In this document: piece by piece, positions 1,430 through 30,901 of the stretch
Position numbering within the stretch: the stretch's first letter is position 1
Layout of the letters: each line of letters begins with the position of its first letter
NCBI GenBank assembly: GCA_016704895.1
Contig: JADIZG010000017.1
Span: forward strand, 1,061-65,060
DNA: 64,000 bases
Source: Betaproteobacteria bacterium
GTDB taxonomy: Bacteria > Pseudomonadota > Gammaproteobacteria > Burkholderiales > Casimicrobiaceae
Direction: 5' to 3'
Position numbers and translations under genes: made by a program
Notes under the pieces: generated by a model
The model's input: only the letters and a program-made list of their open reading frames with translations
What the model was told of the DNA's origin: nothing
The model's database searches: none

Positions 1430-1675
1430 CGCGGCGCTCGTCGTAGTAGGTGTCCTGGCGCTTGAGGAACACGCCGAGCCCCTTGGCGAACAGGATCAGC
1501 ACGGCGCACGCGGCGAACCCGAACCAGGCGCCGAACCCGAACATGCCCGCGATTCCCTCGTGGCCTCCTCGACGAACGCGCCGGCCACCACCATCAGGGC
1601 GAGCACGACGACGAACAGCGTCCACAGCAGGCGGATCGTCCGCGGGCGTACGAGCCAGTGCATCCGTTCGTTCAT
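1422..1675 (-). CDS. small two-TM membrane protein inside the Mrp operon, split by an apparent frameshift
   Basis: ATG 1675 gives MNERMHWLVRPRTIRLLWTLFVVVLALMVVAGAFVEEA (TM helix). The second helix plus tail (GIAGMFGFGAWFGFAACAVLILFAKGLGVFLKRQDTYYDERRDG, stop 1422) is in another frame. The switch is near 1555-1565. Confidence 0.35.
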
Positions 1676-1678
1676 CGG

Positions 1679-3139
1679 CTAGCCTCCGACGAGCTGCCGC
1701 GCGAGCGACAGCGGCAGGTCGGCGAAGAAGAACATCAGCACCGTCGCGGTGGCCGTCGCGACCATCGCGACGACCATCGGCAGCGGCGCCTCGCCGTGCG
1801 CGTGTCCGTGGCCGTCGGCCGAGGGCCGGAAGAACGCGCGGAACACGATCGGCAGCAGGTAACCCGCGCTCAGGAGCGTGCTCGCGGCGATCGTGGCGAT
1901 CGCCACCCAATGCCCGGCCTCGTAGGCGCCCGACAGGATGAACCACTTGCTCGCGAAACCGGCGGTCGGGGGCAACCCGATCATCGACACGGCGCCGACG
2001 GCGAACGCCCCCATCGTCCAGGGCATGCGGCGGCCGATGCCGTCGAGCTGGCTCACCTCGGTCTTGTGCGCGGCCGTGTAGATCGCGCCGGCCGCGAAGA
2101 ACAGCGTGATCTTGCCGAACGCGTGGGCGGCGATGTGCATCGCTGCACCCATGACCGAGAGCGGCGTCAGCAGCGCGGCGGCCAGGATCACGTAGGAGAG
2201 CTGGCTCACCGTCGAGTACGCGAGCCTGCGCTTCAGGTTGTCCGAGCGCAGCGCGACGATCGACGCGGCGACGATCGTGAACGCGGCGACGGTCGGCAGC
2301 CAGTCGACGCTGGAGAGGCCGCGGATCGAGTCGATGCCGAACACGTAGACGATCACCTTGACCACGGTGAACACGCCCGCCTTGACCACCGCCACCGCGT
2401 GCAGCAGCGCGCTCACCGGCGTGGGCGCGACCATCGCCGCGGGCAGCCAGCGGTGGAACGGCATCAGCGCGGCCTTGCCGATGCCGAACATGTACAGCGC
2501 GAGCAGTCCGCCGATCGCCGCGTTGCCGAGCCGTCCCGAGAGGATGCCGCCCGGCACGAAGTCGAGCGTCCCCGCCGCGTGCCAGGTGATCGCGAGCGCG
2601 AACAGGAAGAACATGATCGAGGTCGAGAGCAGGACGCCGAGGTAGACGCGTCCGCCCCGCTTCGCGTCCTCGGTGCCGTGGTGCGTGACCAGCGGATAGG
2701 TGACGAGCGTGAGCATCTCGTAGAACAGGAACAGCGTGAGCCCGTTCGCGGCGAACGCCACGCCCATCGTCGCGGCGATCGCGCCGGCGAAGCAGACGTA
2801 GAAGCGCGTCTGGTGCTTCTCGGCGTTGCCGCGCATGTAGCCGATCGAGTAGAGCGAGTTCACGATCCACAGCCCGGACGCGACCAGCGCGAACAGGAGC
2901 CCGAGCGGCTCGACCGTGAACGCGATCGGCATCCCGGGCAGCATCTCGACGAGCGTGACCGACGGGCGCTCGCCGGAGCGCACCGGCGCGACGAGCGAGA
3001 CCACCGTCGCCAGCAACGCGACGCCGGTGGCCAGCGTCGCGGCCTCGCGCGCGTTCGGCGACCGGTTCGCGAGCGCGATCATGGCCGCGCCCAGCAGCGG
3101 CAGCGCGAGGGCCCCCAGGATCGCGAGCTCGGCGGTCAC
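1679..3139 (-). CDS. mnhD: Mrp/Mnh antiporter subunit D-like (NuoM/N family)
   Basis: GTG 3139 overlaps the stop of the upstream gene (GTGA). The C-terminal half of track ORF 1679..4570 reads VTAELAILGALALPLL...FHRWLPAAMVAPTPVSALLHAVAVVKAG...LAYSTVSQLSYV, typical of the NuoN/MnhD family. Confidence 0.85.
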   Translation of the reverse strand: MTAELAILGALALPLLGAAMIALANRSPNAREAATLATGVALLATVVSLVAPVRSGERPSVTLVEMLPGMPIAFTVEPLGLLFALVASGLWIVNSLYSIGYMRGNAEKHQTRFYVCFAGAIAATMGVAFAANGLTLFLFYEMLTLVTYPLVTHHGTEDAKRGGRVYLGVLLSTSIMFFLFALAITWHAAGTLDFVPGGILSGRLGNAAIGGLLALYMFGIGKAALMPFHRWLPAAMVAPTPVSALLHAVAVVKAGVFTVVKVIVYVFGIDSIRGLSSVDWLPTVAAFTIVAASIVALRSDNLKRRLAYSTVSQLSYVILAAALLTPLSVMGAAMHIAAHAFGKITLFFAAGAIYTAAHKTEVSQLDGIGRRMPWTMGAFAVGAVSMIGLPPTAGFASKWFILSGAYEAGHWVAIATIAASTLLSAGYLLPIVFRAFFRPSADGHGHAHGEAPLPMVVAMVATATATVLMFFFADLPLSLARQLVGG

Positions 3140-5942: not shown

Positions 5943-6647
5943 TCAGCGCTTCGATGACGCGCCCTCCCGTGGGCCGAGTAGCGGCTCGATGCCGCGAGCC
6001 ATGCCGGCCTTCGCGAGCGCGTTCGTGGCCGCGGGGCTGGTGAACAGGATCAGCATGCCGATGATGGCGAGCTTGACCGCGACGAGCGTGAACCCCGCCT
6101 GCAGCATCAGGCCCAGCAGGATCAGCCCGGCGCCGAGCGTCTCGGTGACGCTCGCGGCGTGCATGCGCGTGTAGAAGTCCGGCATGCGCAGCAACCCGAT
6201 GCCGCCGACCACGCAGAAGAAGCCGCCCCCGGCGAGCGAGATCCAGCTCGCGATGTCCAGCACGACGGTCAACGGGTGTCCTCCCCCAGGCTTGCCGCTG
6301 ACGCGCCCTAGGAGGGGCGAGGCCTGGGACGCCCTGCGGCGCTCAACGGGGTCCTCCCGGGTTGCCGCGGGGGGCGGCTCGGCCTCGCCGGGGTCGCCCA
6401 GGTCGCCGTAGCGGAAGAACTTGAGGACCGCGATCGTGCCGACGAGGTTGAGGAGCCCGTAGACGATGGCCAGGTCGAGGAACTCGGGCCGGCCGTTCAG
6501 GAACCCGATGACCGCGAGGAGCAGGACGGCCATCGTGCCCGTCGTGTTGCCCGCCTGCGCCCGGTCGAAGACCGTCGGGCCGAGGATCGCCCGGATGATG
6601 GCGAGCGCCAGCGTGACCAGGATCGCGAGCGTCGCCGCGGCGAACAT
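5943..6647 (-). CDS. MnhF and MnhG encoded in one open frame as given (F core 6400-6647; G core 5943-6272)
   Basis: ATG 6647 (ATGA overlap with the mnhE stop) gives the MnhF-like MFAAATLAILVTLALAIIRAILGPTVFDR...LKFFRYGDLG. No stop follows. After a 45-aa Pro/Gly/Arg linker, the MnhG-like VLDIASWISLAGGGFFCVVGGIGLLRMPDFYTRMHAAS continues in frame. An internal TTG at 6272 is preceded by GGAGGA 6 nt upstream. Confidence 0.6.
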   Translation of the reverse strand: MFAAATLAILVTLALAIIRAILGPTVFDRAQAGNTTGTMAVLLLAVIGFLNGRPEFLDLAIVYGLLNLVGTIAVLKFFRYGDLGDPGEAEPPPAATREDPVERRRASQASPLLGRVSGKPGGGHPLTVVLDIASWISLAGGGFFCVVGGIGLLRMPDFYTRMHAASVTETLGAGLILLGLMLQAGFTLVAVKLAIIGMLILFTSPAATNALAKAGMARGIEPLLGPREGASSKR

Positions 6648-7123
6648 CACGCCCCGCGCTCGAAGCGGGCGACGCGGGCGTCCATGTCCCCGCCCGTGAC
6701 GCCTTCCGCGCCGGCGGTCGTCAGCGCGTGGACCAGGAACTCGTCGCGACTTGCCTCGATCGTGATCGTGCCCGGCGTGAGCGTGATCGAGTTCGCGTGC
6801 GTGACCAGGCCGACCTCGGTGTGCTGCGAGGGCCGGAAACGGACGAGCGTCGGCTGGATCGGCAGCCGCGGCGACAGGATGACCTTCGTGACGTCCCAGG
6901 CCGACTTCACGATCTCCTTGGCGAGCCACGGCCAGTAGAGCGTCGCGCGCGGCGCGAGGTGGATGGGATGGCCCTCGGGATCCACGAGCCCCATCCGCCG
7001 GACGATCCACACGACGGCGATCGACGACGCGAGTCCCGCGGCGAGGAGGAACGGCGTGAAGAAGCCGGAGAGCACGACCCAGTAGACGAACATCACGACG
7101 ACGGAACTGACGGTGCGAAGCAA
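6647..7123 (-). CDS. mnhE: Mrp/Mnh antiporter subunit E
   Basis: Track ORF of 158 aa (WPWLAKEIVKSAWDVTKVILSPRLPIQP...ANSITLTPGTITIE), the MnhE family signature. TTG start at 7123; ATG 7093 is an alternative. Confidence 0.8.
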   Translation of the reverse strand: MLRTVSSVVVMFVYWVVLSGFFTPFLLAAGLASSIAVVWIVRRMGLVDPEGHPIHLAPRATLYWPWLAKEIVKSAWDVTKVILSPRLPIQPTLVRFRPSQHTEVGLVTHANSITLTPGTITIEASRDEFLVHALTTAGAEGVTGGDMDARVARFERGA

Positions 7124-7803: not shown

Positions 7804-9114
7804 TCACGCGGTCGCGGCGGCGACCGGTGCGGCGGACCCGACGTCGCGCTCCGCGAGCTGCTCGACCTCGATCGCCGCGGCGACCTGCGCGAGGCGCGCG
7901 ACGACGCCGTACGCGTAGAACCGGTTCGGCGGGCACCCCGCGGGCGCGCCGAGGTCGGGGATGCACGGCGACTCGAACGCGAGCGGCACGAACTCGGCGC
8001 CGGGCGCGTTCAGGTTCTCGTCGCGGCCGCGCGACGCGTGCACGCGGTAGAAGCCGCCGACGACGTAGCGGTCGATCATGTAGACGACCGGCTCGGCGAT
8101 CGCGTCGTTGATCGCCTCGTAGGTCGGCACGCCCTCCTGGATGATCACCGACGTGACCTCGAGGCCTTCCTTGACGACCGCCATCTTGTTGCGCTGCTTG
8201 CGGTTCAGGCCCTGCACCTCGGACGCGTCGCGCACCGTCATGATGCCCATGCCGTAGGTGCCCGCGTCGGCCTTGACGATCACGAACGGCTTCTCGTCGA
8301 GGCCGTATTCGTCGTACTTGGCACGGATGCGCCCGAGCAGCCAGTCGACGTTCGACGCGAGGCACTCCTCGCCCGCGCGCTCCTGGAAGTCGATCTGGCC
8401 GCAGACGCCGAAGTAAGGATCGATCAGCCACGGATCGATGCCGACGAGCGCGCCGAACTCGTCGGCGACCGCGTGGTAGGCCTCGAAGTGGTGCGACTTC
8501 AGCCGGTTGTACCAGCCGGCCGCGAGCGGCGGCGCGATCGGCTGCTCGATCCCCTGCAGGATCGCGGGCGGCCCGGCGGACAGGTCGTTGTTGAGCAGCA
8601 CCATGCACGGGTCGAAGCCGGCGAGGCCGACACGGTTGCCGGTGCGCACGATCGGCTCGAGCGTGAGCGACGACCCGTCGGGCAGGTCGATCTTCGTGGG
8701 CGCGGTGATGTCCGGAATCAGCGTGCCGATGCGCACCGAGAGGCCCGCCTGCTTCAGGATGCCTTCGAGGGTCGCGACGTTGCGCAGGTAGAACGTGTTG
8801 CGCGTGTGGTTCTCGGGCACGAGCAGCACGCCGCGCGCGTCGGGACACACGCGCTCGACCGCGGCCTGGACCGCCTGCACGCACAGCGGCAGGAACGCGG
8901 GATTCAGGTTGTTGAATCCGCCCGGGAACAGGTTCGTGTCGACCGGCGCGAGCTTGAAGCCCGCGTTGCGCAGGTCGACCGACGCGTAGAACGGGATCGC
9001 GTGCTCGTGCCACTTCGACCGCAGCCAGCGCTCGATGTCGGGCATGCGGTCGAGGAACGTCCGCTCGAGGGCCATCAGCGGGCCGGCGAGCGCGGTGGTG
9101 AGGTGCGGGACCAT
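7804..9114 (-). CDS. gshA: glutamate--cysteine ligase (beta-proteobacterial / T. ferrooxidans-type GshA)
   Basis: Track ORF 7804..9147. The likely start is ATG 9114 (MVPHLTTALAGPLMALERTFL). YASVDLRNAGFKLAPVDTNLFPGGFNNL is characteristic of this GshA family. Confidence 0.85.
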   Translation of the reverse strand: MVPHLTTALAGPLMALERTFLDRMPDIERWLRSKWHEHAIPFYASVDLRNAGFKLAPVDTNLFPGGFNNLNPAFLPLCVQAVQAAVERVCPDARGVLLVPENHTRNTFYLRNVATLEGILKQAGLSVRIGTLIPDITAPTKIDLPDGSSLTLEPIVRTGNRVGLAGFDPCMVLLNNDLSAGPPAILQGIEQPIAPPLAAGWYNRLKSHHFEAYHAVADEFGALVGIDPWLIDPYFGVCGQIDFQERAGEECLASNVDWLLGRIRAKYDEYGLDEKPFVIVKADAGTYGMGIMTVRDASEVQGLNRKQRNKMAVVKEGLEVTSVIIQEGVPTYEAINDAIAEPVVYMIDRYVVGGFYRVHASRGRDENLNAPGAEFVPLAFESPCIPDLGAPAGCPPNRFYAYGVVARLAQVAAAIEVEQLAERDVGSAAPVAAATA

Positions 9115-9218
9115 GCGGTGGGCCTTTGACGCGGGGATTCTGATCATAACGCAACCCGGCCCGTCCCCCGGCCGGCCCTCTCGCCGCGCCTGCCGCTACG
9201 GCGGCTTTCCCGACCGGA

Positions 9219-9692
9219 TCACGGCATCAGCGCCGCCTCGCAGCTAGGCTTGACACCTTTGGCCAGGTGGCTGAAGTCTCCGATCGCGTCTCCGACCTCG
9301 ACGCTCTGTCCCGGAAGCAGCACGGCCTCCAGGACGAACTCGCCGCCGTCCAACTTGCGCTACCGGACCATCGGATCCTGCGTCCGGCGGGCAACGGCAG
9401 ACGGCCGCCGAGACTGTTGGTGACGGTGTAGGTGCGTAATTTGCCGCCTCCGCCAAGTGGAGTCTTTACGACCTTCACCCATGCGACGCACTCGAGCGGC
9501 GTCCCTGCGGTGATGGCAGATGCGCCGGGTGCGCGGGGCGCGACGGGCTTGGCCGCGGTCGGCGCGACGCTGCGGCGGGGTCGGGCACTCTCACGCAGAC
9601 GGTGCCGACGATGACGCCGGTTTGTCGGCCGCCAGCGCGGGAACGGCGGCCATCAGGATGCAGGCGATCAGCGTGCAACGAATCCTCGGCAT
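9219..9692 (-). pseudogene. small secreted protein, reading frame broken twice as given
   Basis: RBS GGAGG plus ATG 9692 gives the signal peptide MPRIRCTLIACILMAAVPALAADKP, then a stop at 9591. Plausible continuation runs in two other frames (..ITAGTPLECVAWVKVVKTPLGGGGKLRTYTVTNSLGG.. then ..RKLDGGEFVLEAVLLPGQSVEVGDAIGDFSHLAKGVKPS, stop 9219). Confidence 0.3.
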
Positions 9693-9878
9693 GATCAACC
9701 TCCTGTGGAGCAGGGTCGGACTCGACTTTCCCCTCGACCGCCGCCTCGCGCGGAGCAGCCGCCCCAAGTCGAGCCTGGGCGGATTCAATCCGATGAATCA
9801 GCAGTTGCCCTGAGCGCAACGAGCGGGGTAATCCTGACCTGGGCGTTTCGCGTGGGCGCTCATCGAGCCCGAGCGCGA

Positions 9879-10253
9879 TTACGGCTTGCCGCGAACGTCG
9901 ACCTGAAAGGAAAAACTGCCGTTCAGCGACGGGGCCCCCTTCTGCATGGGGTTTCGTCCGTACAGTTCGACCACGAACGTATCTGAACCGACGTATCCGG
10001 GGTCCGGAAGATACTTCGCCGTGCTGCCGCCGGCCTCGACCTTGCCGTGCTTTGGCGAGTCAAGCACCTTCCACCCGTCGGGGTCGAATGAGCCCTGGAA
10101 CTTGAACGAGAACACGCATGGATTCCCATTGTTCAGCACACTCATTTTCGCTGGCGCGACGCCGCCTCTGACGAAATTTTCACGAGTGATCTCGCAGTCA
10201 GGACTTTGGGCCATAGCGGTGCCGGCGCAAACGGCCAACACTACGGCGACCAT
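9879..10253 (-). CDS. secreted protein with Ig-like/cadherin-like fold features
   Basis: Within track ORF 9879..10409. ATG 10253 gives the signal peptide MVAVVLAVCAGTAMAQ, then ..GKVEAGGSTAKYLPDPGYVGSDTFVVELYG.., a pattern common in bacterial Ig-like domains. Local GC is visibly lower than in the flanks. Confidence 0.5.
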   Translation of the reverse strand: MVAVVLAVCAGTAMAQSPDCEITRENFVRGGVAPAKMSVLNNGNPCVFSFKFQGSFDPDGWKVLDSPKHGKVEAGGSTAKYLPDPGYVGSDTFVVELYGRNPMQKGAPSLNGSFSFQVDVRGKP

Positions 10254-10405
10254 CCCAATCGGGCAGATCGATTTCCAGTCCTCTCCCTCTCCATTTGATG
10301 GTAGGTGGCGGAGACCGCACGAGCCGATCTTCGCGTCGCCGGACCGAAACATCCGCGTATTCGGCGGGGCCCAACGTGAATCGGCCCGAGTCCCCATGCC
10401 TCTGG

Positions 10406-11022
10406 TCACGGCGCCGCAAGAAATGTGGTCAGCACCGACGTTGCCGTCGACTCACCGTTGCTGGCGGGATTCGCAACGGAATGTATTCTGGTCGTGAGCA
10501 CCTGCTTTGCGAGCCACTTGATCTCCGGGCAATACCAACGAGTCCAGATCTGGTATTGGGTGTAGTACCTGGACCCGTAGGAGGATTCAGCCTCGACCCG
10601 ATAGCATTGAAAGGTTCCTGCCGGAACCGTTAGCGATTCATAGGCGCCACCTTGGCGTGACCAAGCTCGACAACGCCCGGGTGCTCGAAATTGATCGAAA
10701 ACGTCCACTCGTCACCCACGCGCAGCGGATATCTCACCAGCAAACGTGCCGCGTCGTCGCGACCGCCGCGAAGTGGGTTCAGGGCTGAGTCGCAGAAAAC
10801 TTCTCGGTTGTTTATCTTGGTCGCGATACGTTCGGGCGACTCGATCGCCTCGACCCTGAGCCTCCACTTGTCGAATTTGTCGTCTTTCGTATCCGTCCGA
10901 TGAAAAAACCACGAATCGCCGGGCCGGAACTCCGGCTTGTCGGCGATCGGTTGGGCATTGCCGTCATTCGGCGCGCCGGACAGCAGGATCGTGGTCCACG
11001 CGACTGCCAGGGTTCGGTTCAT
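10406..11022 (-). CDS. secreted hypothetical protein (one frameshift as given)
   Basis: ATG 11022 gives MNRTLAVAWTTILLSGAPNDGNAQP... (C-terminal part of track ORF 10630..12789, stop 10630). The sequence clearly continues in track ORF 10406..10708 (YESLTVPAGTFQCYRVEAESSY...). The switch is near 10635-10650. Confidence 0.45.
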
Positions 11023-11075
11023 CGTCGTCACTGGAAGTGATGCATCGACGGGTTTGCGTCGCCCTGATCCCGCGT

Positions 11076-12039
11076 TCACGGCTGCTGCGCGAGCGCCGGA
11101 TCCGCGTAGAGGCACGGCCCGACGATCGCGCGGGTCTCGTCGCTGCCCGCGTCGAGCACCGACACCGTCGCGCCTGGATGCCCCGGCGTATGGCGGACGC
11201 ACGACGACTCGATGCGCGTGTCGCGTTGGGCACCCTGCCTCCCGGATGCATGAAGTCGAGGAAGACCGCCTGGTGCGGGTCCAGGCCGAGAACGTCGGCT
11301 CGCCAGCACATTGCCTTGCCCGTCGAGCACGTCGGCGACGATGGCTTCCGATCTTTCGGGTAGTGCTCAGGATCGCGGGGATACCCGCCGGATTGTTGGG
11401 GAAAAACTCGGGATCGTCCGGGAAATGGGCCGGATCGTAGCCATGCCTGACCATCGACACCCGCAGCGCCTGACCGCGCACGAAGCCGATGGTGCCAGGC
11501 AGCGGGACGTCGGCGGGGATCGGGTCGTTGGCCTGGCCGCTGCCCAGCGCCGGGTCTTGAAAGTGCTCAGGATTACTGGGGTACAGCGTCAGCCCACTGC
11601 CGTCGTCGACGATCTGCAGCGAGCCGCCGACGGTGGATCCCGGCGAGTAACGGACGCGCGCGAACAGCTCGATCCGCGTGTCGCCCGGTTTCCCCTTCTT
11701 CTCCGGATGCACGAAATCGAGGAACCGCGCTTCGTTCGGCCCGAGTTGCGAGAATTCCGCGCTGGCCAGCACCTGCCCGTCGGCGCCGAAGATCTCCGCG
11801 ACGATCAGGTCGGGACTGATAATGCCGCCGGGATCGCCGTGGTCGTGGTTGACCACCGCGAGGCGGGCGAACTGGCCACGCAGCAGGCCGACGGTGCCCG
11901 GCAGCGGCGGCAGCCGTTCCTGATCGGACGAGGGAGGCGGGTCGACCGGGTCCTGCGCTCGGGCGCCGTGCGTCACGCCCCCCAGGCCGAGCATTCCGAG
12001 TCCCTGCAGCACGCGTCGACGCGAGACGGTGGGGGTCAT
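11076..12039 (-). CDS. TAT-signal protein with an internal ~120-aa duplication (second copy broken by at least 3 frameshifts)
   Basis: ATG 12039 gives MTPTVSRRRVLQGLGMLGLGGVTHGARAQ (twin-arginine signal). Repeat 1 is LPPLPGTVGLLRGQFARLAVVNHDHGDPGG...ARFLDFVHPEKKG...DTRIELFARVRYSPGSTVGGSLQIVDDGSG. Repeat 2 (VPLPGTIGFVRGQALRVSMVRHGYDP..) continues in track ORFs 11076..11330 and 10964..11311 (LDGQGNVLAS / AVFLDFMHPGG / DTRIESSCVRHTPGHPGATVSVLDAGSD). Confidence 0.5.
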
Positions 12040-12092
12040 GGGAATCCCTCCTCGAACGATGACCCTACTCCCATCATGGGCGATGTCAATGC
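12040..12092 (-). promoter_or_regulatory. conserved promoter/leader, copy A (TTGACA-16 nt-TAGGGT, RBS GAGGAGGG, then ATG 12039)
   Basis: The minus-strand sequence GCATTGACATCGCCCATGATGGGAGTAGGGTCATCGTTCGAGGAGGGATTCCC lies immediately 5' of the TAT-protein ATG. It is about 80% identical to copy B at 15731-15784. Confidence 0.45.
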
Positions 12093-12101
12093 TTTCTCCG
12101 A

Positions 12102-13116
12102 CTACCGCCGGGCGTCGAGCGTGCATCGCTCGACCTTGCGCTCCCGCCGCATCGCTTCGCAGCGGTCGAAGCCCGCGCGCGTTGCGCAGGTGAAGCGCCC
12201 TTCGCCTGGCGCCGCGGTGCACGACAACGCCGCGAGTTCGCGTGCCGCACCGCCAGCGGCCGCGGCGGGGACGACGCTCGAGGATCCGCCAGCCAACGTC
12301 GCCTGCGCACGCTGCCCGCCGGCCGCTCCAGACGGCGCGGCGTGGGTGGAGGGGGTCGAGAGCGCACCCCGCTGCGGTGTCGTCGCCGGCGGGGCGACCG
12401 AGCCCGCTGAGGGCTGCATCGCGGGCGCCACGCGCATGGCCGTCCCGCCAACGGTCGGCGTCCCCGCGCCCGCGCTCGCGCCGGCCTTGGCCCCGGCGCT
12501 CGACGCGTCGTATGCGCCCGCGCCGGTCTTGGCCCCCGCGCTCGACGCGTCGTTCGCGCCCCCGCCGGCAGGCGACTTCTGCCCCAGCTTGCTGGTCTCC
12601 TTCAACGCCGCCGCGGCGCCTTCCAGCGGAGGCTTCGAAAACTGGGCGGCCTCCGCCATCGTCGTCCTGCCCTTGAGAATCGGCTGATGCTGCTTGAGCG
12701 GCGGTCCCGAGAACTCGTCGAGCTTGGTCGAATTGTTGTGCGAGACGACGACGCACGCCGCCGCGCCGATCAGCGGGTCGCCGCCGCACTTGAACACGCT
12801 CTCCACGTCGCCGGAATGCTTGCCGAGCGAGCCTTCCACCCGAAGGCGCCCCCGAGGGTTCCGGTCGTCGCGTTCCACGCTGCGACGCCGTCGACGATCA
12901 GCGTCCGCTGCTGGACTGGTTCATGCCGCCAAAGGCAACGACCTGGCAGCTGCCGGCGAACTTGTAGTCGTGCAGCGTCAGCGCGGGAACGCCCTTCGCC
13001 GCTGCGAGCTTCAGGCCCGCGCAGTTCAACAGCGCGGCATGCGCCGGCATCGCGAGGCCGGCCGCGCCCAGGCAGGCTGCCGCAAGCAGCACGCGGACCG
13101 CAGGAAACTCGTTCAT
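12102..13116 (-). CDS. secreted Cys-containing, Ala/Gly/Ser-rich protein ending in a 4-Cys module (2 frameshifts as given)
   Basis: ATG 13116 gives the signal peptide MNEFPAVRVLLAAACLGAAGLAMPAHA (track ORF 12898..13116). It continues in track ORF 12770..13147 (LIVDGVAAWNATTGTLGGAFGWK) and then in 12102..12878 (GSLGKHSGDVESVFKCGGDPL ... ARELAALSCTAAPGEGRFTCATRAGFDRCEAMRRERKVERCTLDARR). Confidence 0.45.
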
Positions 13117-13207
13117 GGCAGCCTCCTTTCACCGTCGCACAACGCACCCCACTGCCCGAGGCTGCGCGCCGATCCCCGACGGGCGGCCGCAGCGCTCGCC
13201 GTGCCGT

Positions 13208-15605
13208 TCATCGCCGCTCGACCAGCGTGCATCGCTCGACCTTGCGCTCGCGCCGCAGCGCTTCGCAGCGGTCGAAGCCCGCTCGCGTCGCGCAGGTGAA
13301 GCGCCCTTCGCCTGGCGCCGCGGTGCACGACAACGCCGCGAGTTCGCGTGCAGGCGTAATCGCCCTGGCGACGAGCGCCGTGTTGGTCCTCGGTGCGGGC
13401 GCCGCGGCGGCCGGCGCGGGCGGGGTCACCGCAACGGCCTGACGACTGGTCGAACCCCAGTTCGGCGTTGCCGCCGGCACCGGGGTGCGCGCGACGGTCG
13501 GCGCGGACTGCACGGACGGGGACGGTTGCGGCTGCGGTCCCGGCAGCGAGCGAACCGCACTCACGGGCGCCTGGGCCGCCGGCAGCGCGGACCTCGGCCG
13601 GCCGAACTCGCCGCCCGCCGCCGCCTGCGGACCGGCCTGCGCGGGCATCGCCGCCCTGCCCGTCGTCGTGAACGCCGTCGACGGCTCGATCGCCGGGTCG
13701 GGCTCGCCGGGCCGGACGAGCTTCAGTCGTCCGGCCGGCACCGGCGGCGTCACGTCAGGCCGCGGGTGGACCGCCGTTGGCGGCGCCGCGGCCAACTCGC
13801 CCGGATGCAGCGCGACACCCTGGTTCGCGTTATCGGCCATCAGGAAGTTCTCGAGGCGCGTCGGCACCGCCGCCGTTGGGATCGGACGGACAGTAGTCGA
13901 CGCCGAGGTTCGGCATCAGGCCGAGTTGCGTCTTCAGCGCCTGCTTGCCGGCACAGCGGATCGCCACCGGGTCGGGCGAGCCTGGCTGGCAGGCTGCGCC
14001 GGAATCCATCGCGGCCGACACCATCAGCGTCGGCGGCGTGCCCGCCTTCACGTTGAGCTGACCGGCGATCTGCAGCGCGTCGAGCTTGGCGCTCTCGAAC
14101 GACGGATCGGACAACGGCGTGCAGGCGATGGCGAGCGTGCCGAACCAGGGGGCGCCCTTCTGCGCCTGCATGCCTGCCACCAGGCTCTTGCACCGGTCCA
14201 CCTTCCAGGGGCGGGTGCACTGCACGGTCGAGGCGGTCTGCGCCGGCTTGCAGCGCTTTCCCAGTTGCTGCGCGATCTGCGGCGCGAGTGCCGCGTTGGC
14301 CTTGGCGGCGTCGACCACGCACTGGCTCGCGTGCGTCGGCAGCGCCGCGAGACAGCTCGCCCTCGCGTCGTAGTTGACGCAGTACAAGTTGCTGCTGCTC
14401 GTCGCCGTGCACCCCTGCTTGGCGAGCAGCGCGAGCTGCATCTCGAGCATCTGCTTCTGGCCGACCGGCCAGGAGCAGGTCCTGGCCCTGCAGCGTGATC
14501 CCAACGTCGGGCGCGGCTGGGTGGAGGCAGGCCGTCGCCTCCAGCAGCGGGAATTTCCATCAGGTGGCAGGCGTTGCCTCCCAGTTGGCCGGGGACTTGC
14601 CCCGAACTCCTGTAGAAAAGATAGTGGTACAGCAGGTTCGTCCGCAGGTTCAGCTCGAAGTAGGCGGCCGCCGCACCGTCGAGTTGCGCTGCCACCGGAT
14701 TCACCGTGTCGAGAAAGACCTTGCGCATCGCGTCGCAGGGCTTGGCGCTGCCGAAGTACTCGTTGCACGACGAGTGCTTGTCGTTGACGAAAGCCGTCAG
14801 CGCCGCGTCGCCCTTCACGTACTTGAGCCACGCGCCCAGGTGCGTGGTGTTGGCCCAGTAGGCCTTGAAGTACGCCTTCGGCGTCTGCTTCGCGTGGTAG
14901 GAGCCGAGCACTTTGTCGCCCGCGTCGAAGACGTATCCCGCGGCGTCGACCGCAAGGCCGGCCAGCTCGGCCAATCCTTCCGCCAGCTCCTTGCCGGCCG
15001 CGAGGATCTCGCCGAGCGCGCCGCAGGCGATCTCGCGCATCGCCGCCGGTATGACGTCGACTCGCAGGCCAGACCGGGACCGAGGATCGACACGAGTCCA
15101 GCACGTCGGGCGGAGAGTCCGATACCGCCGCGACCACGCCGCTCAGGACCGGCTTGGCCAGCTTGGCCAGTTCGGAGGAAATGCTCGAGCAGAGGACGGC
15201 CTTGACGGGCCCGGGCGGCATCGCCGCCGTGCAGGCGAGTTGGACGACCAGCTCGCTCCCTCCGATCTCGATCACCTTGCCCCACTGCTTCTTCGACGCA
15301 GCGATGCCCACGGTGACCACCGTCTGCGCGGTGGAGTGGGACGCGAGGTAGCCGTCGGCCTTCGCCTTGGCGAGTGCGCCGCCGCACACCTGCAGCGTCT
15401 TGTCGTTGAGCGCGCCCTGGCCGATCGCGCACTTGAGCAGCTGCTTCGCGTTGAAGAGGTCCGGGTCGACCGACTGCAGCACCAGGTCGAGGATGGTGTC
15501 CATCACGTCCGCGCGCGCGGCTGGCGCCGCGAGCATCAATGCGCACAGGCCGGCGGTGATCGCCGCGAGCCGCGAGCCCTGGAATACGTGGCGCCAGCCG
15601 TTCAT
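13208..15605 (-). CDS. large (~800 aa) secreted Cys-rich protein with Pro/Ala-rich tail and the same 4-Cys C-terminal module (at least 3 frameshifts as given)
   Basis: ATG 15605 gives MNGWRHVFQGSRLAAITAGLCALMLAAPAARA (signal peptide) in the frame of track ORF 13830..17252. It continues in 14048..15040 (MREIACGALGEILAAGKEL...), returns to the 13830 frame (QKQMLEMQLALLAKQGCTATSSSNLYCVNYDARASC...), then runs in 13208..13867 (...ARELAALSCTAAPGEGRFTCATRAGFDRCEALRRERKVERCTLVERR). An alternative start is ATG 15730, directly after leader copy B. As given, that ATG opens only a 40-codon ORF ending at 15608. Confidence 0.45.
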
Positions 15606-15730
15606 GACTACCGCGCTGCTCGAGGTCCTGCGAACGGCCGGATGATAGACGATCGCGTGACGATCGTGGGTGGACCGGGCCGCCGGGATAGCCGAGCCGT
15701 GATGGACCGTGGCGGAACGACGGGGGCCAT

Positions 15731-15784
15731 GGGAATCCCTCTTCGACCGAAAGACCCTACCCCGTTCATGGGCGAAGTCAATGC
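15731..15784 (-). promoter_or_regulatory. conserved promoter/leader, copy B
   Basis: The minus-strand sequence GCATTGACTTCGCCCATGAACGGGGTAGGGTCTTTCGGTCGAAGAGGGATTCCC is followed by ATG 15730. It is a paralogue of copy A at 12040-12092. Confidence 0.45.
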
Positions 15785-15940
15785 TGCGCCGCGCGGCTCG
15801 GGGACGCCCCAAAAAAAACGGGACGCCGGAGAGGCGTCCCGCAAGGCCACTGAGGAGAAACGATCGAGGAGGAGACCCCGACTTGCTGCTTACCCGCGGA
15901 CGGGCACGGGCCCGCCCGCGGACAACCTTCCCGGCGACGC

Positions 15941-17464
15941 CTACATCCGGTAGGCCGACTCGCCGTGCGAGCTGATGTCGAGGCCCTCGCGCTCCTCTTC
16001 CTCGGAGACGCGCAACCCGACGACCATGTCGACGACCTTGTACGAGAGGTAGGCGACCACGCCCGACCAGATCACGGTCACGCCCACCGCCTTCGCCTGG
16101 ATCCACACCTGGCCCGCGATCGAGTAGTCCGCCGCCTTGACGATCTCGCCGGTCACCCAGTTCGACACGTAGCCGGGGCCGCCGAGCGACGGGTCGTTGA
16201 ACACGCCGGTGAGCAGCGCGCCCAGGATGCCGCCCAGCGCGTGCACGCCGAACACGTCGAGCGAGTCGTCGACGCGCAGCATGCGCTTGAGCCCGCTGAC
16301 GCCCCAGAAGCAGACGAGTCCCGCCGCGATGCCGATCGCGAACGCGCCCGGGATGCCGACGTTGCCGGCGGCCGGGGTGATCGCGACCAGGCCCGCCACG
16401 GCGCCCGAGGCCGCGCCGAGCATCGACGGCTTGCCCTTCAGCATCCACTCGGCGAGGATCCACGACATCACGGCGCAGGCGGTGGCGAGGAACGTGTTCA
16501 CGAACGCGAGCACCGCCGAGTTGCCTGCTTCCAGCGCGGAACCCGCGTTGAACCCGAACCAGCCGGTCCACAGCAGCGCCGCGCCGATCATCGTGAGCGG
16601 CAGGTTGTTCGGCGGCATCGCTTCGCGGCCGTAGCCGATGCGCTTGCCGAGCACGTAGGCGCCGACGAGGCCCGCGATGCCGGCGTTGATGTGCACGACC
16701 GTGCCGCCCGCGAAGTCCAGCGCGCCCCACTGCCAGATCATGCCGGCCTTGGCGGTGAGCTCGTCGATCAGCTTCGGATCCGTGTAGGCGTCCGGGCCCA
16801 TCCAGAACCACACCATGTGCGCGATCGGCGTGTAGGCGAACGTGAACCAGAGGATCGAGAACAGCAGCAGCGCCGAGAACTTGATGCGCTCGGCGAACGC
16901 GCCGACGATCAGGCACACGGTGATCGCCGCGAACGTCGCCTGGAACGCCACGAACAGCAGCTCGGGGATCGGCGTGTTCTTCGAGAACGTCGCCGCCATC
17001 GCGAACGCGCCCGTCGACGAGTCGAACGTTCCCTTGAGGAACAGCCGGTCGAAGCCGCCGATGTAGGCGTTGCCCTCGGTGAACGCGAGGCTGTAGCCGT
17101 AGACGCACCACAGCACCGTGATCATCGAGAACACGACGAACACCTGCATCAGCACCGACAGGATGTTCTTCGACCGCACCATGCCGCCGTAGAACAGCGC
17201 GAGCGCCGGGATGCTCATCATGATGACGAGCAGCGTCGACGTCAGCATCCACGCGACGTCGCCCTTGTTGGGCGTCGGCGCCGGGGCGGCGGTGGCGGCG
17301 GGGGTCGCCGCAGGGGCTGCCGCCGGGGCGGCGGCTGGCGCGTCGGCGGGAGCCGTGGCCGCAGGGGTCGCCGCGGCTGCGGGCGCCTTGTCCTGCGCGA
17401 GCGCCGCGGGGACCGCGAACGCGACCGCGCCGACGAGCGCGATCAGTGCGAATAGCTTCTTCAT
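15941..17464 (-). CDS. amtB: ammonium transporter AmtB (signal peptide plus Ala/Pro-rich N-terminal linker)
   Basis: Track ORF of 507 aa with Amt family motifs (DFAGGTVVHINAGIAGL, GFNAGSA, VFGVHALGGILGALLTG). It lies directly downstream of glnK. Confidence 0.95.
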   Translation of the reverse strand: MKKLFALIALVGAVAFAVPAALAQDKAPAAAATPAATAPADAPAAAPAAAPAATPAATAAPAPTPNKGDVAWMLTSTLLVIMMSIPALALFYGGMVRSKNILSVLMQVFVVFSMITVLWCVYGYSLAFTEGNAYIGGFDRLFLKGTFDSSTGAFAMAATFSKNTPIPELLFVAFQATFAAITVCLIVGAFAERIKFSALLLFSILWFTFAYTPIAHMVWFWMGPDAYTDPKLIDELTAKAGMIWQWGALDFAGGTVVHINAGIAGLVGAYVLGKRIGYGREAMPPNNLPLTMIGAALLWTGWFGFNAGSALEAGNSAVLAFVNTFLATACAVMSWILAEWMLKGKPSMLGAASGAVAGLVAITPAAGNVGIPGAFAIGIAAGLVCFWGVSGLKRMLRVDDSLDVFGVHALGGILGALLTGVFNDPSLGGPGYVSNWVTGEIVKAADYSIAGQVWIQAKAVGVTVIWSGVVAYLSYKVVDMVVGLRVSEEEEREGLDISSHGESAYRM

Positions 17465-19299: not shown

Positions 19300-20862
19300 T
19301 CAATTCGGCGAGCACATCACCACGCCTTCGTTCACGTATCCCTCGCCGACCATCTGCGACACGATCGCGGGGCTCGTCGTGTAGCGGTGGTTGCTTCCCC
19401 ACGCGGCTGCGTTGGCCTGGCCGTTCCAGAGCCGGTACACCGGGGCCGTCCCGCCGGCGCACGTTCCCTGCGCCGGCACCGCGACGTGGAACGCGCTCGG
19501 CGACTCGTGCACGTACCCCGCGTACCACGCATGGCTGGGATGCGCCGGATTCGTCGAGGCATCGAGGATGGCCGCGCACTCCGGCGCGGACGCCGAGAAG
19601 AAATGCGAATCGCCGAGCCCCGGCGGAATGTAGAAGCGACAGACGGGTTGCGAACCGGCCGGCTGGCCGACATGGGCTCTCCACGTGAAGCCGGTGGTCG
19701 CCCAGCCCTTGATCACGGCCCCGGATACCAGTGCCGCGATCTCGACCGGATCGATGCTGATGAAGAAATGGTGCAGACCGGCATGATAGAACTCGACGAC
19801 CGGCACCGTCGCGGCCCCCGCGCCCGCGTCGTTCGTTGCGGCGCAGACGGCGTAGCCGTTGAATCCGGTGCCCGTATTGGTGGCGTCCACGTCCCTGATC
19901 GCGGCTGTGGTCCAGGCCGGCCCGATCGGATAGTTGCCGGGGTTGCGCTGGTACAGCGCCAGTGCGGTATCGTCACCGAACAGCGGTTCCAGGCCCACGA
20001 GCCATTGACCGGGCAGGCGCGAACCGCCCGCCAGCGCGCCCGTCCCCGCGGGACAGCTCGCTGATTCGCGGAACACGACATAGTTCGACGAGGTGGCGTC
20101 GAACGACGTGGCGACGCGCGCGTCGGTGCCCTGCGCGCAGATCGAGCCCACCTTGAACACGGGTCCCGGCGGAGGCGGCACGACGAAGATGAGCGGCGCG
20201 CCGTACACGCCCGCGCGCCAGCCGACCGACGGCGGCCAGGTCTGGTCGGAGCCGTCGGATTGCGGATGGCTCGCGCTGATCCGGTACTTCTCCGACGTCA
20301 GCGTGTCCGCGCGCTCCACGTCGATGCCTCCGCCGAGCGCGCGGTAGTTCGCGGGGCACTCAGCCGTTGCGGAGACGTCCGAGAAGTAGCCCGCCTGTCC
20401 GCTCTCGACGACGGTCACCACTGGTCCCGACAGCTGTGCGCAGCTCACGGCGAGCGCGATCGTCGACGGCCCTTCGAGCATGTCGATGCTCGCATACCAG
20501 CCGTCGGGGGCGCCGGCCTGCACGCCGTCGGCCAGCTGGAACAGCGCCAGGTTGCCGAAGGTCGGCGCGAGCGTCGTGACCGTCCACGCGCTCCCCGACG
20601 AGATGCCGCCCGAGAGCGCGACGTAACCGGCCGGGCAACGCGCCGCGATGTCGGCGTAGCCGTTGGTCGTGACGGTGCGTTTCGCGACGACGACCAGCGC
20701 ATCGCCGACCTGCGCCGAGGCGGCCTGCGAGGCGAGGCCGACTGTCGCCAGTGCCAATGCCGCAACCCATCTCCTGCATGCGCTCGTCGTCACCGGGTTG
20801 CTCCGTCGAAGGGACTCGGGCACCGATTCTACGTCGGGAACCGTGGCGAGCCAACAAGACAT
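19300..20862 (-). CDS. secreted hypothetical protein: three CPxG-x-x-A-L-x-GG repeats plus a conserved C-terminal Cys-containing domain
   Basis: Track ORF of 520 aa. The probable true start is GTG 20793 (TTSACRRWVAALALATVGLASQAASAQ signal peptide, GGAG 7 nt upstream). Repeats: CPAGYVALSGG, CPANYRALGGG, CPAGTGALAGG. The C-terminus reads VVEFYHAGLHHFFISIDPVEIAAL...VCRFY...HFFSASAPEC...APVYRLWN...NHRYTT. Confidence 0.6.
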   Translation of the reverse strand: MSCWLATVPDVESVPESLRRSNPVTTSACRRWVAALALATVGLASQAASAQVGDALVVVAKRTVTTNGYADIAARCPAGYVALSGGISSGSAWTVTTLAPTFGNLALFQLADGVQAGAPDGWYASIDMLEGPSTIALAVSCAQLSGPVVTVVESGQAGYFSDVSATAECPANYRALGGGIDVERADTLTSEKYRISASHPQSDGSDQTWPPSVGWRAGVYGAPLIFVVPPPPGPVFKVGSICAQGTDARVATSFDATSSNYVVFRESASCPAGTGALAGGSRLPGQWLVGLEPLFGDDTALALYQRNPGNYPIGPAWTTAAIRDVDATNTGTGFNGYAVCAATNDAGAGAATVPVVEFYHAGLHHFFISIDPVEIAALVSGAVIKGWATTGFTWRAHVGQPAGSQPVCRFYIPPGLGDSHFFSASAPECAAILDASTNPAHPSHAWYAGYVHESPSAFHVAVPAQGTCAGGTAPVYRLWNGQANAAAWGSNHRYTTSPAIVSQMVGEGYVNEGVVMCSPN

Positions 20863-20968
20863 TCGCGCTTCAGCGACGAATGAACATCGGCCGCACGGTC
20901 GAGCGCTCGCAGGATGGCGTCGGCAATGCGCACCGCCGCGGGCCTGCGCGCAGGCGCGCGCGCGCGCT

Positions 20969-21418
20969 CTAGAGCCAGTACTCGGGGTAGCGCCGGAACC
21001 GCGGGATGTTGTTCACGACGAGCGCCACCGCGAGCAGCACGAGCGGCGCCAGCGTGCAGGGCACGAGCACGTACAGGAAGCCCAGCGCGTGGACGTCGGG
21101 CGATCCGATCACCGCGATCAGCGCGGTCGCGCCGCCGGGCGGGTGCAGCGTGCGCGTGGCGTGCATCAGCGCGATCGCCGTGGCGACCGCCACGGATGCG
21201 GCGAGCCACGGCCACGGGTGCAGCAGCTTCCAGCACGCGACGCCGACGATCGCGGACAGCAGGTGTCCCGCGACGAGGTTGCGCGGCTGCGCCAGCGGGC
21301 TGCGCGGCGCGCCGTAGACCAGCACGGCGGACGCGCCGATCGAGCCGACCATCAGCGTGAGGTCGACCGTCAGGAACGCGGAACGCCGCGGGGCGATGCC
21401 GAGGAACGCGCCATCCAC
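20969..21418 (-). CDS. HPP-family membrane protein (N-terminus possibly truncated by indels in upstream homopolymers)
   Basis: Track ORF of 149 aa: GASAVLVYGAPRSPLAQPRN, HPPGGATAL. G8 (21421-21428) and C12 (21481-21492) lie immediately upstream. Confidence 0.7.
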   Translation of the reverse strand: MDGAFLGIAPRRSAFLTVDLTLMVGSIGASAVLVYGAPRSPLAQPRNLVAGHLLSAIVGVACWKLLHPWPWLAASVAVATAIALMHATRTLHPPGGATALIAVIGSPDVHALGFLYVLVPCTLAPLVLLAVALVVNNIPRFRRYPEYWL

Positions 21419-21742
21419 CAGGGGGGGGCCAACCCATCACCGCGCCCGTCACCCAGGAACCCGGCCCTCCCCGAAACCCGCCCCCCCCCCCCATCCTCAC
21501 CGCACGACCCTGCAGGTAGCAGGCTGCATGGCATCGAGGATGTCCGGACGGGCGGTCGGAGCGGGTCTCAGGCGCGCGCGGTCTGCCGGTTTCGCTCACG
21601 ACAATAGCTGCGCGCCGCGCGCGCGCAAGACGCGCCGCCCCCCCCCGGCGCATCGTCCGGATGGCCGAACGCGGCGTGGCGAGGTCCCCGGCACAGTGGC
21701 GAAGCGGATCTTCGCAGGTCTCGCCGGGGAAGGCAGCCCACC

Positions 21743-23300
21743 ATGTCGGTCGCCGTCGTACGCAGCCGCGCGCTCGCGGGTCTCGCGGCGCCGCCGGTCA
21801 GCGTCGAGGTGTACCTCGGCGGCGGGCTGCCGGCGGTCAACATCGTCGGGCTGCCCGATACCGAGGTCCGCGAGGCGCGCGACCGCGTGCGCGCCGCGCT
21901 GCAGAACGCGAACTTCGACTTCCCGGCGCGCAAGGTCACCGTCAACCTCGCGCCTGCCGACCTTGCCGAAGGAGAGCGGCCGCTTCGACCTGCCGATCGC
22001 GCTGGGCATCCTCGCGGCGAGCGGACAGATTCCCTCGGCGGCGCTCGATCGCCACGAGTTCGCGGGCGAGCTCGCGCTGACCGGCGAGCTCCGCGCGGTG
22101 CGCGGTGCGCTCGCGATGGTGCTCTCGGCGCGCCACGACGGGCGCGCGTTCGTGCTGCCGCGCGCGAGCGCGGCCGAGGCGGCGCTCGTTCCCGACGCGT
22201 CGGTGCATCCCGCGCGCACGCTGCTCGAGGTCTGTGCGCACCTGACCGGCGACGCGCCGCTGCCGCGGCTCGCGCCGATGGCGGTCGACGCGGGCCAGGC
22301 GAGCGCGCCGGATCTCGCCGAGGTCCGCGGCCAGCATCAGGCGAAGCGCGCGTTGGAGATCGCCGCGGCCGGCGGCCATTCGCTGCTGCTGTGCGGGCCG
22401 CCGGGCGCGGGCAAGTCGATGCTCGCGCAGCGCCTGCCCTCGCTCCTGCCGCCGCTGGACGAGGACGAGGCGCTGGAGGTCGCGGCGATCGCGTCGCTCG
22501 CGGGCCGCTTCGATCCGGCGCGCTGGCGCGTGCGTCCCTATCGCGCGCCGCATCACACGGCGAGCGCGGTCGCGATCGTCGGCGGCGGGAGCCACCCGCG
22601 CCCCGGCGAGATCTCGCTCGCGCACCGGGGCGTGCTGTTCCTCGACGAGCTGCCCGAGTGGGAGCGCCGCGTGCTCGAGGTGCTGCGCGAGCCGATCGAG
22701 TCGGGCGTCGTGCAGATCTCGCGCGCGGCGCGGCAGAGCGTGTTCCCGGCGCAGTTCCAGCTCGTCGCCGCGATGAATCCCTGTCCCTGCGGATGGCTCG
22801 GCCACGCGAGCGGGCGATGCCGCTGCTCGCCCGATCGCGTGCTGGCCTACCGCAGCCGCATCTCGGGGCCGCTCCTCGACCGCATCGACCTCGCGATCGA
22901 CGTGCCCGCGCTGCCGCCCGACGAGATTGCCATCGGGGGCGATGCGCCGGACGCGGAGCCGTCGTCGCGCGTCCGCGAGCGCGTCGCGGCGGCACGTGCC
23001 CGACAGCTCGCGCGGCAGGGCGTGTGCAACGCCGGACTCACGGTAGCGGACCTTCAGCGCCACGGCGTGCCGGACGAGCAGGCGCGCGCGCTCGCGACAC
23101 GCGCGATGTCGCGCTTCGGGCTCTCGGCGCGCGCCTACCACCGCATCCTGAAGGTCGCGCGGACGATCGCCGATCTCGCATCGGCCGACACGGTCGGGTC
23201 GGCGCACGTCGCCGAGGCGATCGGCTATCGGCGTTTCGACTCGGCGGAGTTCGCGCGGGACGCGTCGCCGGCCATGCCCGCCAGGCACGGCCCGCCGTGA
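21743..23300 (+). CDS. comM: Mg-chelatase-like ATPase ComM/YifB (one frameshift as given)
   Basis: The N-terminus is in track ORF 21743..23425 (MSVAVVRSRALAGLAAPPVSVEVYLGGGLPAVNIVGLPDTEVREARDRV..VNLAPADL). The rest is in 21357..23300 (KESGRFDLPIALGILAA...LLLCGPPGAGKSM...GVLFLDELPE). An apparent extra base lies near 21963. Confidence 0.85.
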
Positions 23301-23312
23301 GGCCTGGCTGCG

Positions 23313-30771: not shown

Positions 30772-30901
30772 GGCGTCGCGGGTCTCGGCGCGGGCGTTCG
30801 TCCTGCTCCCGTATCATTCACTGTCGAACGAGTCTCCGCGGTACAACCGGCATCCGGCCCCGCCCTCCGAAGTCGACTCCGCCGGAAACCCCTGGTTGCC
30901 C

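Follow-up and report, generated by a model that had tools for sequence, protein, structure and literature searches.

We analysed a stretch of 64,000 nucleotides (nt) from a betaproteobacterial metagenome-assembled genome (MAG; contig JADIZG010000017.1), referred to below as the window (GC content ~71%). Positions 9219-15605 of the window hold six minus-strand genes for exported proteins, located between gshA and amtB and resolved by three-frame reading together with intact orthologues. A frame plot of GC content at third codon positions (GC3) and three-frame translations revealed a minus-strand coding signal across 9.2-15.6 kb, in which the best frame switches repeatedly without stop or start signals; gene coordinates were taken from peptide anchors. 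In the direction of transcription, the locus comprises genes for an 808-amino-acid (aa) Cys-rich protein (13208-15605; Sec-exported; 808 aa in orthologues), an Ala/Gly/Ser-rich protein (12102-13116; Sec-exported; 322-338 aa in orthologues), a tandem beta-sandwich protein exported by twin-arginine translocation (Tat; 11076-12039; 324-331 aa in orthologues), a beta-rich protein (10406-11022; 205 aa), an Ig-like protein (9879-10277; exported; 132 aa in orthologues) and a small exported protein (9219-9692; ~157 aa if continuous). The locus is flanked by gshA, which encodes glutamate-cysteine ligase (7804-9147, minus strand; TIGR02049, 606 bits), and by amtB, which encodes an ammonium transporter (15941-17464, minus strand; TIGR00836, 441 bits); beyond amtB lie glnK and then the gene of a TorF-family porin, both on the minus strand.

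Signal peptides were called by inspection of the intact orthologues only, and each of the six proteins begins with one, which bears out the first-pass annotation of this stretch, where the locus had been described as a row of six exported minus-strand proteins. The predicted signal peptides, as judged by eye, are MNGWRHV..LAAPAARA/D (808-aa protein), MNEF..GLAMPAHA/A (Ala/Gly/Ser-rich protein), MTPTVSRRRVLQGLG..GARA/Q (Tat protein), MNRTLAVAW..GNA/Q (beta-rich protein), MNSICPIGMVAVV..AMA/Q (Ig-like protein) and MPRIR..VPALA/A (small protein). In comparisons with Pfam and NCBIfam, none of the six proteins reached a curated cut-off, and they showed no domain of an enzyme, transporter or regulator, as had been proposed from the sequence alone. 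A scan for tRNA genes found none within the window, so that the classical landmark of a genomic island is absent.

Broken reading frames and intact sister copies

In the window sequence, frameshifts interrupt five of the six genes, and the remaining one, for the Ig-like protein, is without its ATG. Intact copies were found in sister contigs. L003, a 5.7-kb contig from the European Nucleotide Archive (ENA), shows 96% DNA identity to the window locus and carries, all uninterrupted, the end of amtB, the 808-aa, 322-aa and 324-aa genes and the start of the beta-rich gene. L023, a second, independent short-read contig that is also 96% identical, covers the C-terminus of the 808-aa protein, the 338-, 331-, 205- and 132-aa genes and the start of the small gene. 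In both contigs, the gene order is that of the window and every gene is intact. The sister lineage represented by L019 and L020, at ~88% nucleotide identity, has the 808-aa, Tat, beta-rich, Ig-like and small genes and gshA in order, and the Ala/Gly/Ser-rich gene is missing from it. The window, L003, L019 and L023 share the location of the locus between amtB and gshA. Given intact copies at the same position in sister contigs, the cluster is, as judged from these comparisons, a stable feature of the clade at this chromosomal position, with one dispensable component. The locus is also strain-variable, with 4% divergence and length polymorphisms of 48 nt and 21 nt among sister contigs; compared with L003, the window and L023 both have 48 nt (16 aa) more, in frame, in the low-complexity part of the Ala/Gly/Ser-rich gene, where a tandem 42-nt repeat is located (12472-12555).

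Alignment of the window with L003 yielded 124 mismatches and 33 indels, of which 30 are deletions of 1-5 nt in the window, in agreement with the earlier view that the frames need repair. The 808-aa gene contains 14 deletions (11 events clustered at 14458-14603, and single deletions at 15098, 15060 and 13854), the Ala/Gly/Ser-rich gene two single-base deletions (12905 and 12853), the Tat gene a cluster of 8 between 11176 and 11380, and the beta-rich gene one (10645), with a further cluster in the intergenic segment 15610-15666; three single-base deletions were found in the small gene (~9596, 9562 and 9358). The same deletion sites recur in the comparison with L023, and jointly the two comparisons give at least 27 frame-breaking deletions over five genes. 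Many of the frame switches fall inside the most conserved segment of the 808-aa protein, KFPLLEGDGLQxTQPRPTVWDHACKK. In the Ig-like gene, positions 10275-10277 read TGG where L019 and L023 have ATG, the frame being otherwise intact; the next in-frame ATG (10253) would give a signal peptide without a charged n-region. The open reading frame (ORF) at 13208-13867 (219 aa) is the C-terminus of the 808-aa gene. A broken ORF of the window corresponds exactly to MBK6394549.1 ('MAG: hypothetical protein IPF73_07560 [Betaproteobacteria bacterium]', from an 88.6-kb contig), a 469-aa database entry that fuses parts of two genes. Outside the locus, no long gene of the window is interrupted, and this holds for GC3 segments of 1631, 947, 831 and 819 codons.

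We compared substitutions on the two closest branches, polarised with L019 as the outgroup and leaving out alignment positions close to gaps. There are 32 substitutions on the window branch (12 synonymous and 20 non-synonymous) and 24 on the L003 branch (8 and 16, respectively); in the same segments, ~20 deletions map to the window branch and none to the L003 branch. Thus, the frames are disrupted relative to intact orthologues, as in a pseudogene, without the excess of unconstrained substitutions on the disrupted lineage (32 vs. 24) that would be another mark of one. Because many deletions accompany no substitution excess on the window branch, we consider it likely that the ~30 small deletions are long-read consensus errors left uncorrected in a strain-variable region. 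The deletion patches amount to ~15% local error over 150-200 nt, a density like that of uncorrected long reads, and a strain-variable locus is a place where polishing towards a population consensus fails most easily. From its accession and locus-tag style, we take the MAG of the window to belong to a Danish activated-sludge long-read (Nanopore) set; loci L004 and L006 bear names of the kind used in that project. The window would then probably come from a Nanopore MAG assembly whose pipeline retains unpolished sequence: in the pipeline behind the activated-sludge long-read MAGs, CANU was run with corMinCoverage=0 and Racon with --include-unpolished, in addition to two rounds of medaka and a single Racon round with Illumina data.

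The competing explanation, in which the deletions are real and the six genes are non-functional remnants of an inactivated and decaying accessory locus, appears unlikely to us, if still a serious contender. It accords with the number of frame-breaking deletions and the lost Ig-like ATG, with the restriction of the damage to a 6.4-kb locus whereas ~45 kb of coding sequence elsewhere in the window has no breaks, with the high share of non-synonymous changes, and with the deletion bias that is known for bacterial pseudogenes. It also accords with an in-frame TAG (…ECVAWV*VKTPLGG…) in the small gene of L019 (4013-4483) and L020 (2407-2712), which was found in two independent short-read assemblies and where the window has AAG; given this stop codon, the small gene is at the least weakly constrained in the L019/L020 lineage, and is probably either that or a real pseudogene there. 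However, ~20 deletions per 32 substitutions in the compared segments is a ratio far above that of neutral decay, and the substitution count is comparable to that of the intact sister branch. The raw-read-like patches are, moreover, densest in the most conserved protein segment, and the probable source of the MAG, a pipeline that retains unpolished sequence, argues in the same direction. A scan of Joint Genome Institute (JGI) metagenomes with patterns for a deletion site in either allele gave zero hits. Programmed frameshifting or a contingency locus was rejected, as the indels lie outside simple repeats and conserved codons are struck in all frames.

Two further ORFs outside the locus have unusual frames. 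At 5943-6650 (minus strand), MrpF/PhaF and MnhG/PhaG domains occur in one ORF, joined by a ~55-aa Pro/Arg-rich linker, which is either a natural fusion or the product of a lost stop codon or frameshift. At 1437-1680 (minus strand), a small gene for a protein with two transmembrane helices, lying between antiporter subunit genes and giving no usable Pfam match, shows a seeming frame change between the hydrophobic helices, which may be another uncorrected indel.

Duplicated leader and shared four-Cys tail

A leader element of ~75 nt occurs in exactly two copies in the window, where chance would give 0. Its sequence is GCATTGAC(W)TCGCCCATGAnnGGnGTAGGGTC, followed by 10-11 nt, GAGGGATTCCC-ATG and the opening codons of the Tat gene. 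Copy A (15712-15785, minus strand; TTGACT, 17-nt spacer, TAGGGT, GAGGGATTCCC-ATG) lies upstream of the 808-aa gene, and copy B (12021-12093, minus strand; TTGACA, 17-nt spacer, TAGGGT, GGAGGGATTCCC-ATG) starts immediately downstream of the Ala/Gly/Ser-rich stop codon and heads the Tat gene. The element is also present at the corresponding places in L003 and L019, and the near-identity of the two copies upholds the earlier description of the locus as two units behind the same promoter and leader. At copy A, the copied Tat ATG opens a short ORF (MAPVVPPRS...; 15608-15730, minus strand) that reaches the start of the 808-aa gene; its amino acids are not conserved between the window and L003, which differ by six indels here, and by this comparison it is best read as a remnant of the duplicated 5' end of the Tat gene. 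An Rfam scan of positions 9000-16100 at E <= 1 returned no RNA family, which rules out a known riboswitch or small RNA. As copy A includes the Tat ATG and first codons, and given the negative Rfam result, the leader looks like a duplicated promoter and 5' end rather than a structured RNA.

Upstream of copy A, the intrinsic terminator of amtB (15818-15842, minus strand) consists of GCGGGACGCC-loop-GGCGTCCCG followed by T8. Its stem has 10 pairs, 8 of them G-C, and together with the T-run it is conserved in L003; a hairpin of this kind would insulate the locus from amtB transcription. A strict sigma-70 consensus scan returned no site, the TTGAC-N17-TAGGGT elements scoring below its threshold, and no sigma-54 motif was seen in the leader by inspection. 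A pattern scan of JGI metagenomes for the leader gave zero hits.

The 808-aa and Ala/Gly/Ser-rich genes both end in a 140-nt repeat, the two copies of which (13212-13351 and 12106-12245, both on the minus strand) are 94% identical. The repeat encodes ELAALSCTAAPGEGRFTCATRAGFDRCEALRRERKVERCTL, which follows a low-complexity spacer and forms a C-terminal four-Cys module of 45 residues with the pattern C-x10/11-C-x8-C-x11-C and a basic end (..ERR); the copy in the 808-aa protein scores 90 bits against a hidden Markov model (HMM) of the module. The Ala/Gly/Ser-rich protein is composed of a ~150-aa Cys-containing N-terminal domain, a low-complexity linker and the four-Cys module. In a search of representative proteins, 15 matched the linker and module only, on differing N-terminal domains, among them an Ala/Gly/Ser-rich (AGS) type, a beta-rich type of 320-377 aa, a 587-aa type and a second Cys-rich type of 750-907 aa. 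The tail is found on at least five unrelated N-terminal domains, and every complete protein that bears it has the module at its very C-terminal end. When the 808-aa family was aligned with the tail-bearing P0138 family using hhalign, the tail alone aligned, and the N-terminal domains were not detectably related. An origin of the module as a copy of the internal Cys modules of the 808-aa protein was likewise discarded: the C-x10-C-x8-C spacing matches residues 460-483, where the HMM score is -1.3 bits and not significant. Tail-bearing proteins gave no hit at E <= 1 to the sorting-domain models of NCBIfam and Pfam (PEP-CTERM, Por_Secre_tail, GlyGly-CTERM and others). The distribution of the tail resembles the behaviour of a docking or sorting tag, a role we infer from its occurrence on unrelated domains.

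Protein families and their context in relatives

The 808-aa protein, for which many paired Cys residues had been noted, contains 27 Cys, and across 47 family members 17 Cys are invariant and four more are at least 90% conserved; a DPNxDGAD motif is conserved too. A search with the stitched 576-aa translation found 15 clusters (756-972 aa) among 5.8 billion proteins, the best of which is 808 aa long and 89% identical; a profile search recovered 136 relatives among 1.84 billion representatives, 100 of them below 1e-10, and a member of the family occurs in 6 of 185,579 species genomes. AlphaFold2, supplied with the family alignment, predicted the protein with a mean predicted local distance difference test score (pLDDT) of 76 and ~90 in the core, as a helical domain (residues 33-404), four hairpin-helix Cys modules (405-575), a disordered Pro/Ala-rich linker (600-757) and the small C-terminal four-Cys module. 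A Foldseek search of this model against the Protein Data Bank (PDB) and BFVD returned nothing below E 0.5, and the family profile found nothing credible among PDB sequences; the ~590-residue helical Cys-rich domain is apparently a new fold. The family is therefore rare and unannotated (~136 representatives in 1.8 billion), with a confident helical Cys-rich predicted fold that has no PDB match.

The Tat protein has 17 homologue clusters in 5.8 billion proteins. Its leader (SRRRVLQGLG; MTPTVSRRRVLQGLGMLGLGGVTHGARA/Q) combines an S/T-R-R-x-F/V-L motif, a hydrophobic stretch and an AxA site, and both twin arginines (R7 and R8) show at least 90% conservation among 14 homologues; TIGR01409 scored 14.1 bits, below its cut-off of 16.7, and PF10518 matched 1 of the 14 homologues (E 0.078). 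The internal duplication (42% identity, E 2e-34) fits the Tat protein with a duplicated architecture that had been recognised from the sequence, and the predicted model consists of two beta-sandwiches with pLDDT ~90 in their cores. Like Tat-exported beta-sandwich proteins, it thus pairs a twin-arginine leader with two Ig-like/beta-sandwich domains. Foldseek against the PDB gave generic beta-sandwich matches only, the best being sandwich domains of GH2 enzymes and complement C3; template-modelling (TM) scores are at most 0.2, and no catalytic or cofactor motif was recognised. The structural check that had been proposed for these proteins, run on the 808-aa and Tat models, thus yielded no confident structural family.

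The beta-rich protein matches PF21347 (DUF3108_like) with 19.6 bits (E 8.7e-4; model positions 139-179 of 199, the C-terminal part), below the gathering threshold of 27 bits. Among 27 homologues at 39-48% identity (E 1e-34 to 1e-47), 19 carry precomputed PF21347 annotation, and two also PF11306. With significant full-length homology to PF21347 members, the protein can be classed, on sequence similarity, as a divergent DUF3108-like protein, so that the description of the locus as devoid of nameable families largely holds, at the level of curated cut-offs and of folds, but is slightly overstated for this protein. To our knowledge, the DUF3108-like family has no known function. Both of the two beta-rich homologues whose context was checked lie inside Opp-type peptide ABC transporter operons, unlike the locus copy. 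In L021 and L022 (5001-5636), the DUF3108-like homologues belong to a conserved Opp-type operon that includes an M20 peptidase and a DUF2817 protein, a context that is a possible functional lead for DUF3108-like proteins. The Ig-like protein scored 17.2 bits (E 0.0097) against Big_9 (PF17963), below the gathering threshold of 23.6, and its intact L023 orthologue gave no Big_9 hit at E <= 0.01. PDB sequence searches with the beta-rich and Ig-like proteins found nothing credible.

The beta-rich and Ig-like genes also differ in composition from the rest of the locus. A lower GC content had been noted at 9.2-11 kb; the dip is real but narrower (9.75-11.0 kb), with GC contents of 0.587 for the beta-rich gene and 0.589 for the Ig-like gene vs. 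0.714 for the window, and it excludes the small gene (0.686). GC3 is 0.70-0.71 in this pair, 0.86-0.91 in the three larger genes and 0.96-0.97 in gshA and amtB. The horizontal acquisition suggested earlier is accordingly plausible, on composition, for the beta-rich/Ig-like pair only and not for the rest of the locus, and the acquisition of the pair would be older than the split from L019 (relatives at 88% nucleotide identity). Elsewhere in the window, a run of genes at 19300-37300, including a 1631-codon plus-strand ORF (32400-37292), has GC3 of 0.88-0.93 vs. 0.96-0.99 in housekeeping genes and may be a second accessory region.

At 54-65% identity, homologues of the 808-aa protein lie in one conserved operon that differs from the window locus. 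It encodes a BTAD/AAA_16 regulator and 58-, 179- and 249-aa (polytopic) proteins, then the 808-aa homologue, and further variable Cys-rich proteins, a ~100-aa coiled-coil protein, a CsgG-family lipoprotein (245 aa; 81 bits to Pfam CsgG, cut-off 20.8) and a 210-aa protein; a protein joining an AGS-type N-terminal domain to CARDB often follows. The 249-aa-type membrane protein also precedes a distant Thiobacillus homologue. In the 64-kb window, tblastn with the CsgG-family proteins of L001, L010 and L011 found nothing, and the sole match in the search for the partner operon was a BTAD N-terminus with 34% identity (63406-63987), which is cut off by the window edge. This is the start of a BTAD-type regulator gene (63355-64000, plus strand), the product of which is 34% identical over 214 aa to the regulators that head the relatives' operon. 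In L001, L004, L010 and L013 (e.g., L013 5438-5977), we also observed proteins made of repeated CPPG(Q/T)xxYR Cys-rich modules, either encoded by genes of their own or forming the C-terminal end of the 808-aa homologue, where they stand instead of the four-Cys tail.

The operon of the relatives resembles curli (type VIII secretion) systems in that the 808-aa family shares it with a CsgG-family lipoprotein. Unlike curli loci, however, the window has no CsgG-family gene, the lipoprotein of the relatives also resembles LpoB, no CsgA/CsgB-like repeat protein was found and no curlin repeat was detected by Pfam in the six proteins, and Cys-rich, presumably folded proteins are unlikely CsgG cargo. 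A second likeness is to CARDB surface proteins: in 9 of the 47 family members of the 808-aa protein, CARDB domains replace the four-Cys tail, which hints at a surface location, and the AGS-type N-domain homologue in L001 and L004 likewise ends in CARDB. The window proteins themselves are without CARDB, and the helical domain of the 808-aa protein has no Pfam, PDB-sequence or Foldseek match.

A probable lineage-restricted mosaic of exported proteins

On balance, we lean towards reading the locus as a lineage-restricted accessory cluster of real genes garbled by errors and organised in two units, a mosaic and not a machine. In the uncultured activated-sludge betaproteobacterium, the genes are real, being intact in sister strains, and would form two transcription units, each behind a ~75-nt copy of the promoter, Shine-Dalgarno sequence and start, the first beginning after the amtB terminator. 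The 808-aa and Ala/Gly/Ser-rich proteins would be exported by Sec and then stabilised by many disulfides, and their four-Cys tails may dock different cargo to one common partner in the envelope or at the surface. Likely candidates for that partner (the CsgG-family lipoprotein, the 249-aa membrane protein and the BTAD/AAA regulator) would be encoded outside the window. The Tat substrate, with two duplicated beta-sandwich domains, the lower-GC pair of DUF3108-like and Ig-like proteins and the small, poorly constrained protein would complete the cluster.

Several points weigh against this reading. A genome-wide error process alone does not predict damage strictly within this locus; the in-frame TAG in the sister lineage is real, so that some decay is genuine; the non-synonymous share is high on the window branch and the L003 branch alike; and the MAG is tied to the Nanopore study by accession and locus-tag style, not by a direct record. 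Disulfide bonding, tail docking and a surface or envelope location are, like co-regulation of the two units, what we infer from the features described above, no sortase-like or other processing enzyme was identified, and folded proteins with disulfide bonds would not get through a CsgG-type channel.

A more specific proposal is doubtful. It holds that the tail with its Pro/Ala-rich spacer is an undescribed sorting or anchoring tag that directs Sec-exported cargo to a dedicated envelope or surface system, the core of which (the BTAD/AAA regulator, the 58-, 179- and 249-aa proteins, the CsgG-family lipoprotein and the 210-aa protein) is encoded elsewhere in some Burkholderiales-like bacteria, the locus being a satellite island of cargo. 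Like the C-terminal tags of the PEP-CTERM/exosortase, type IX secretion system (C-terminal domain), LPXTG/sortase and GlyGly-CTERM/rhombosortase systems, the four-Cys tail is short, lies at the extreme C-terminus behind a low-complexity spacer, and occurs on several unrelated N-terminal domains in a narrow lineage with tagged genes clustered. Unlike those tags, it has no transmembrane helix or known motif but four conserved Cys and a basic end, it is matched by no curated model, no dedicated processing enzyme was identified, and a sorting function is conjecture throughout.

The first-pass annotation had suggested a self-contained extracytoplasmic structure, adhesin or toxin-like system formed by the six proteins together, which we now consider improbable. 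Six consecutive exported proteins with no cytoplasmic component, the same leader on both units, suggestive of co-regulation, and a gene order kept in close relatives speak in its favour. Beyond close relatives, however, the components do not travel together: co-occurrence is lost beyond ~77% protein identity, the 808-aa family has other conserved partners elsewhere, and homologues of the Tat protein (at 44-45% identity) and of the beta-rich protein lie in unrelated gene contexts. The cluster can do without the Ala/Gly/Ser-rich gene, composition sets the beta-rich and Ig-like genes apart, no toxin, pore or adhesin family was found by sequence or fold, and the present sample suggests independent gain and loss. 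A functional tie to the neighbouring genes, through nitrogen assimilation (amtB-glnK) or thiol/redox metabolism (gshA), e.g., as periplasmic proteins induced by nitrogen limitation, is very improbable: the conserved position between amtB and gshA fits it, but amtB ends in a strong terminator, the locus has its own promoter-like elements with no sigma-54-like motif, and the more distant relatives all carry the 808-aa family elsewhere, with the BTAD/AAA regulator.

Under the favoured reading of real genes garbled by errors, a strain-variable region in a long-read MAG can yield chimeric 'hypothetical proteins' such as MBK6394549.1, and family building and pseudogene counts based on such records would be misled. 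What this locus chiefly yields is the diagnosis of the broken frames, the recognition that two of its proteins have a four-Cys tail in common, and the finding that the 808-aa family is linked elsewhere to an operon containing a CsgG-family gene. Should the tail serve in docking or sorting, it would join the small set of bacterial C-terminal sorting systems as a new member and would open a way into the cell-surface biology of wastewater bacteria that are abundant but uncultured.

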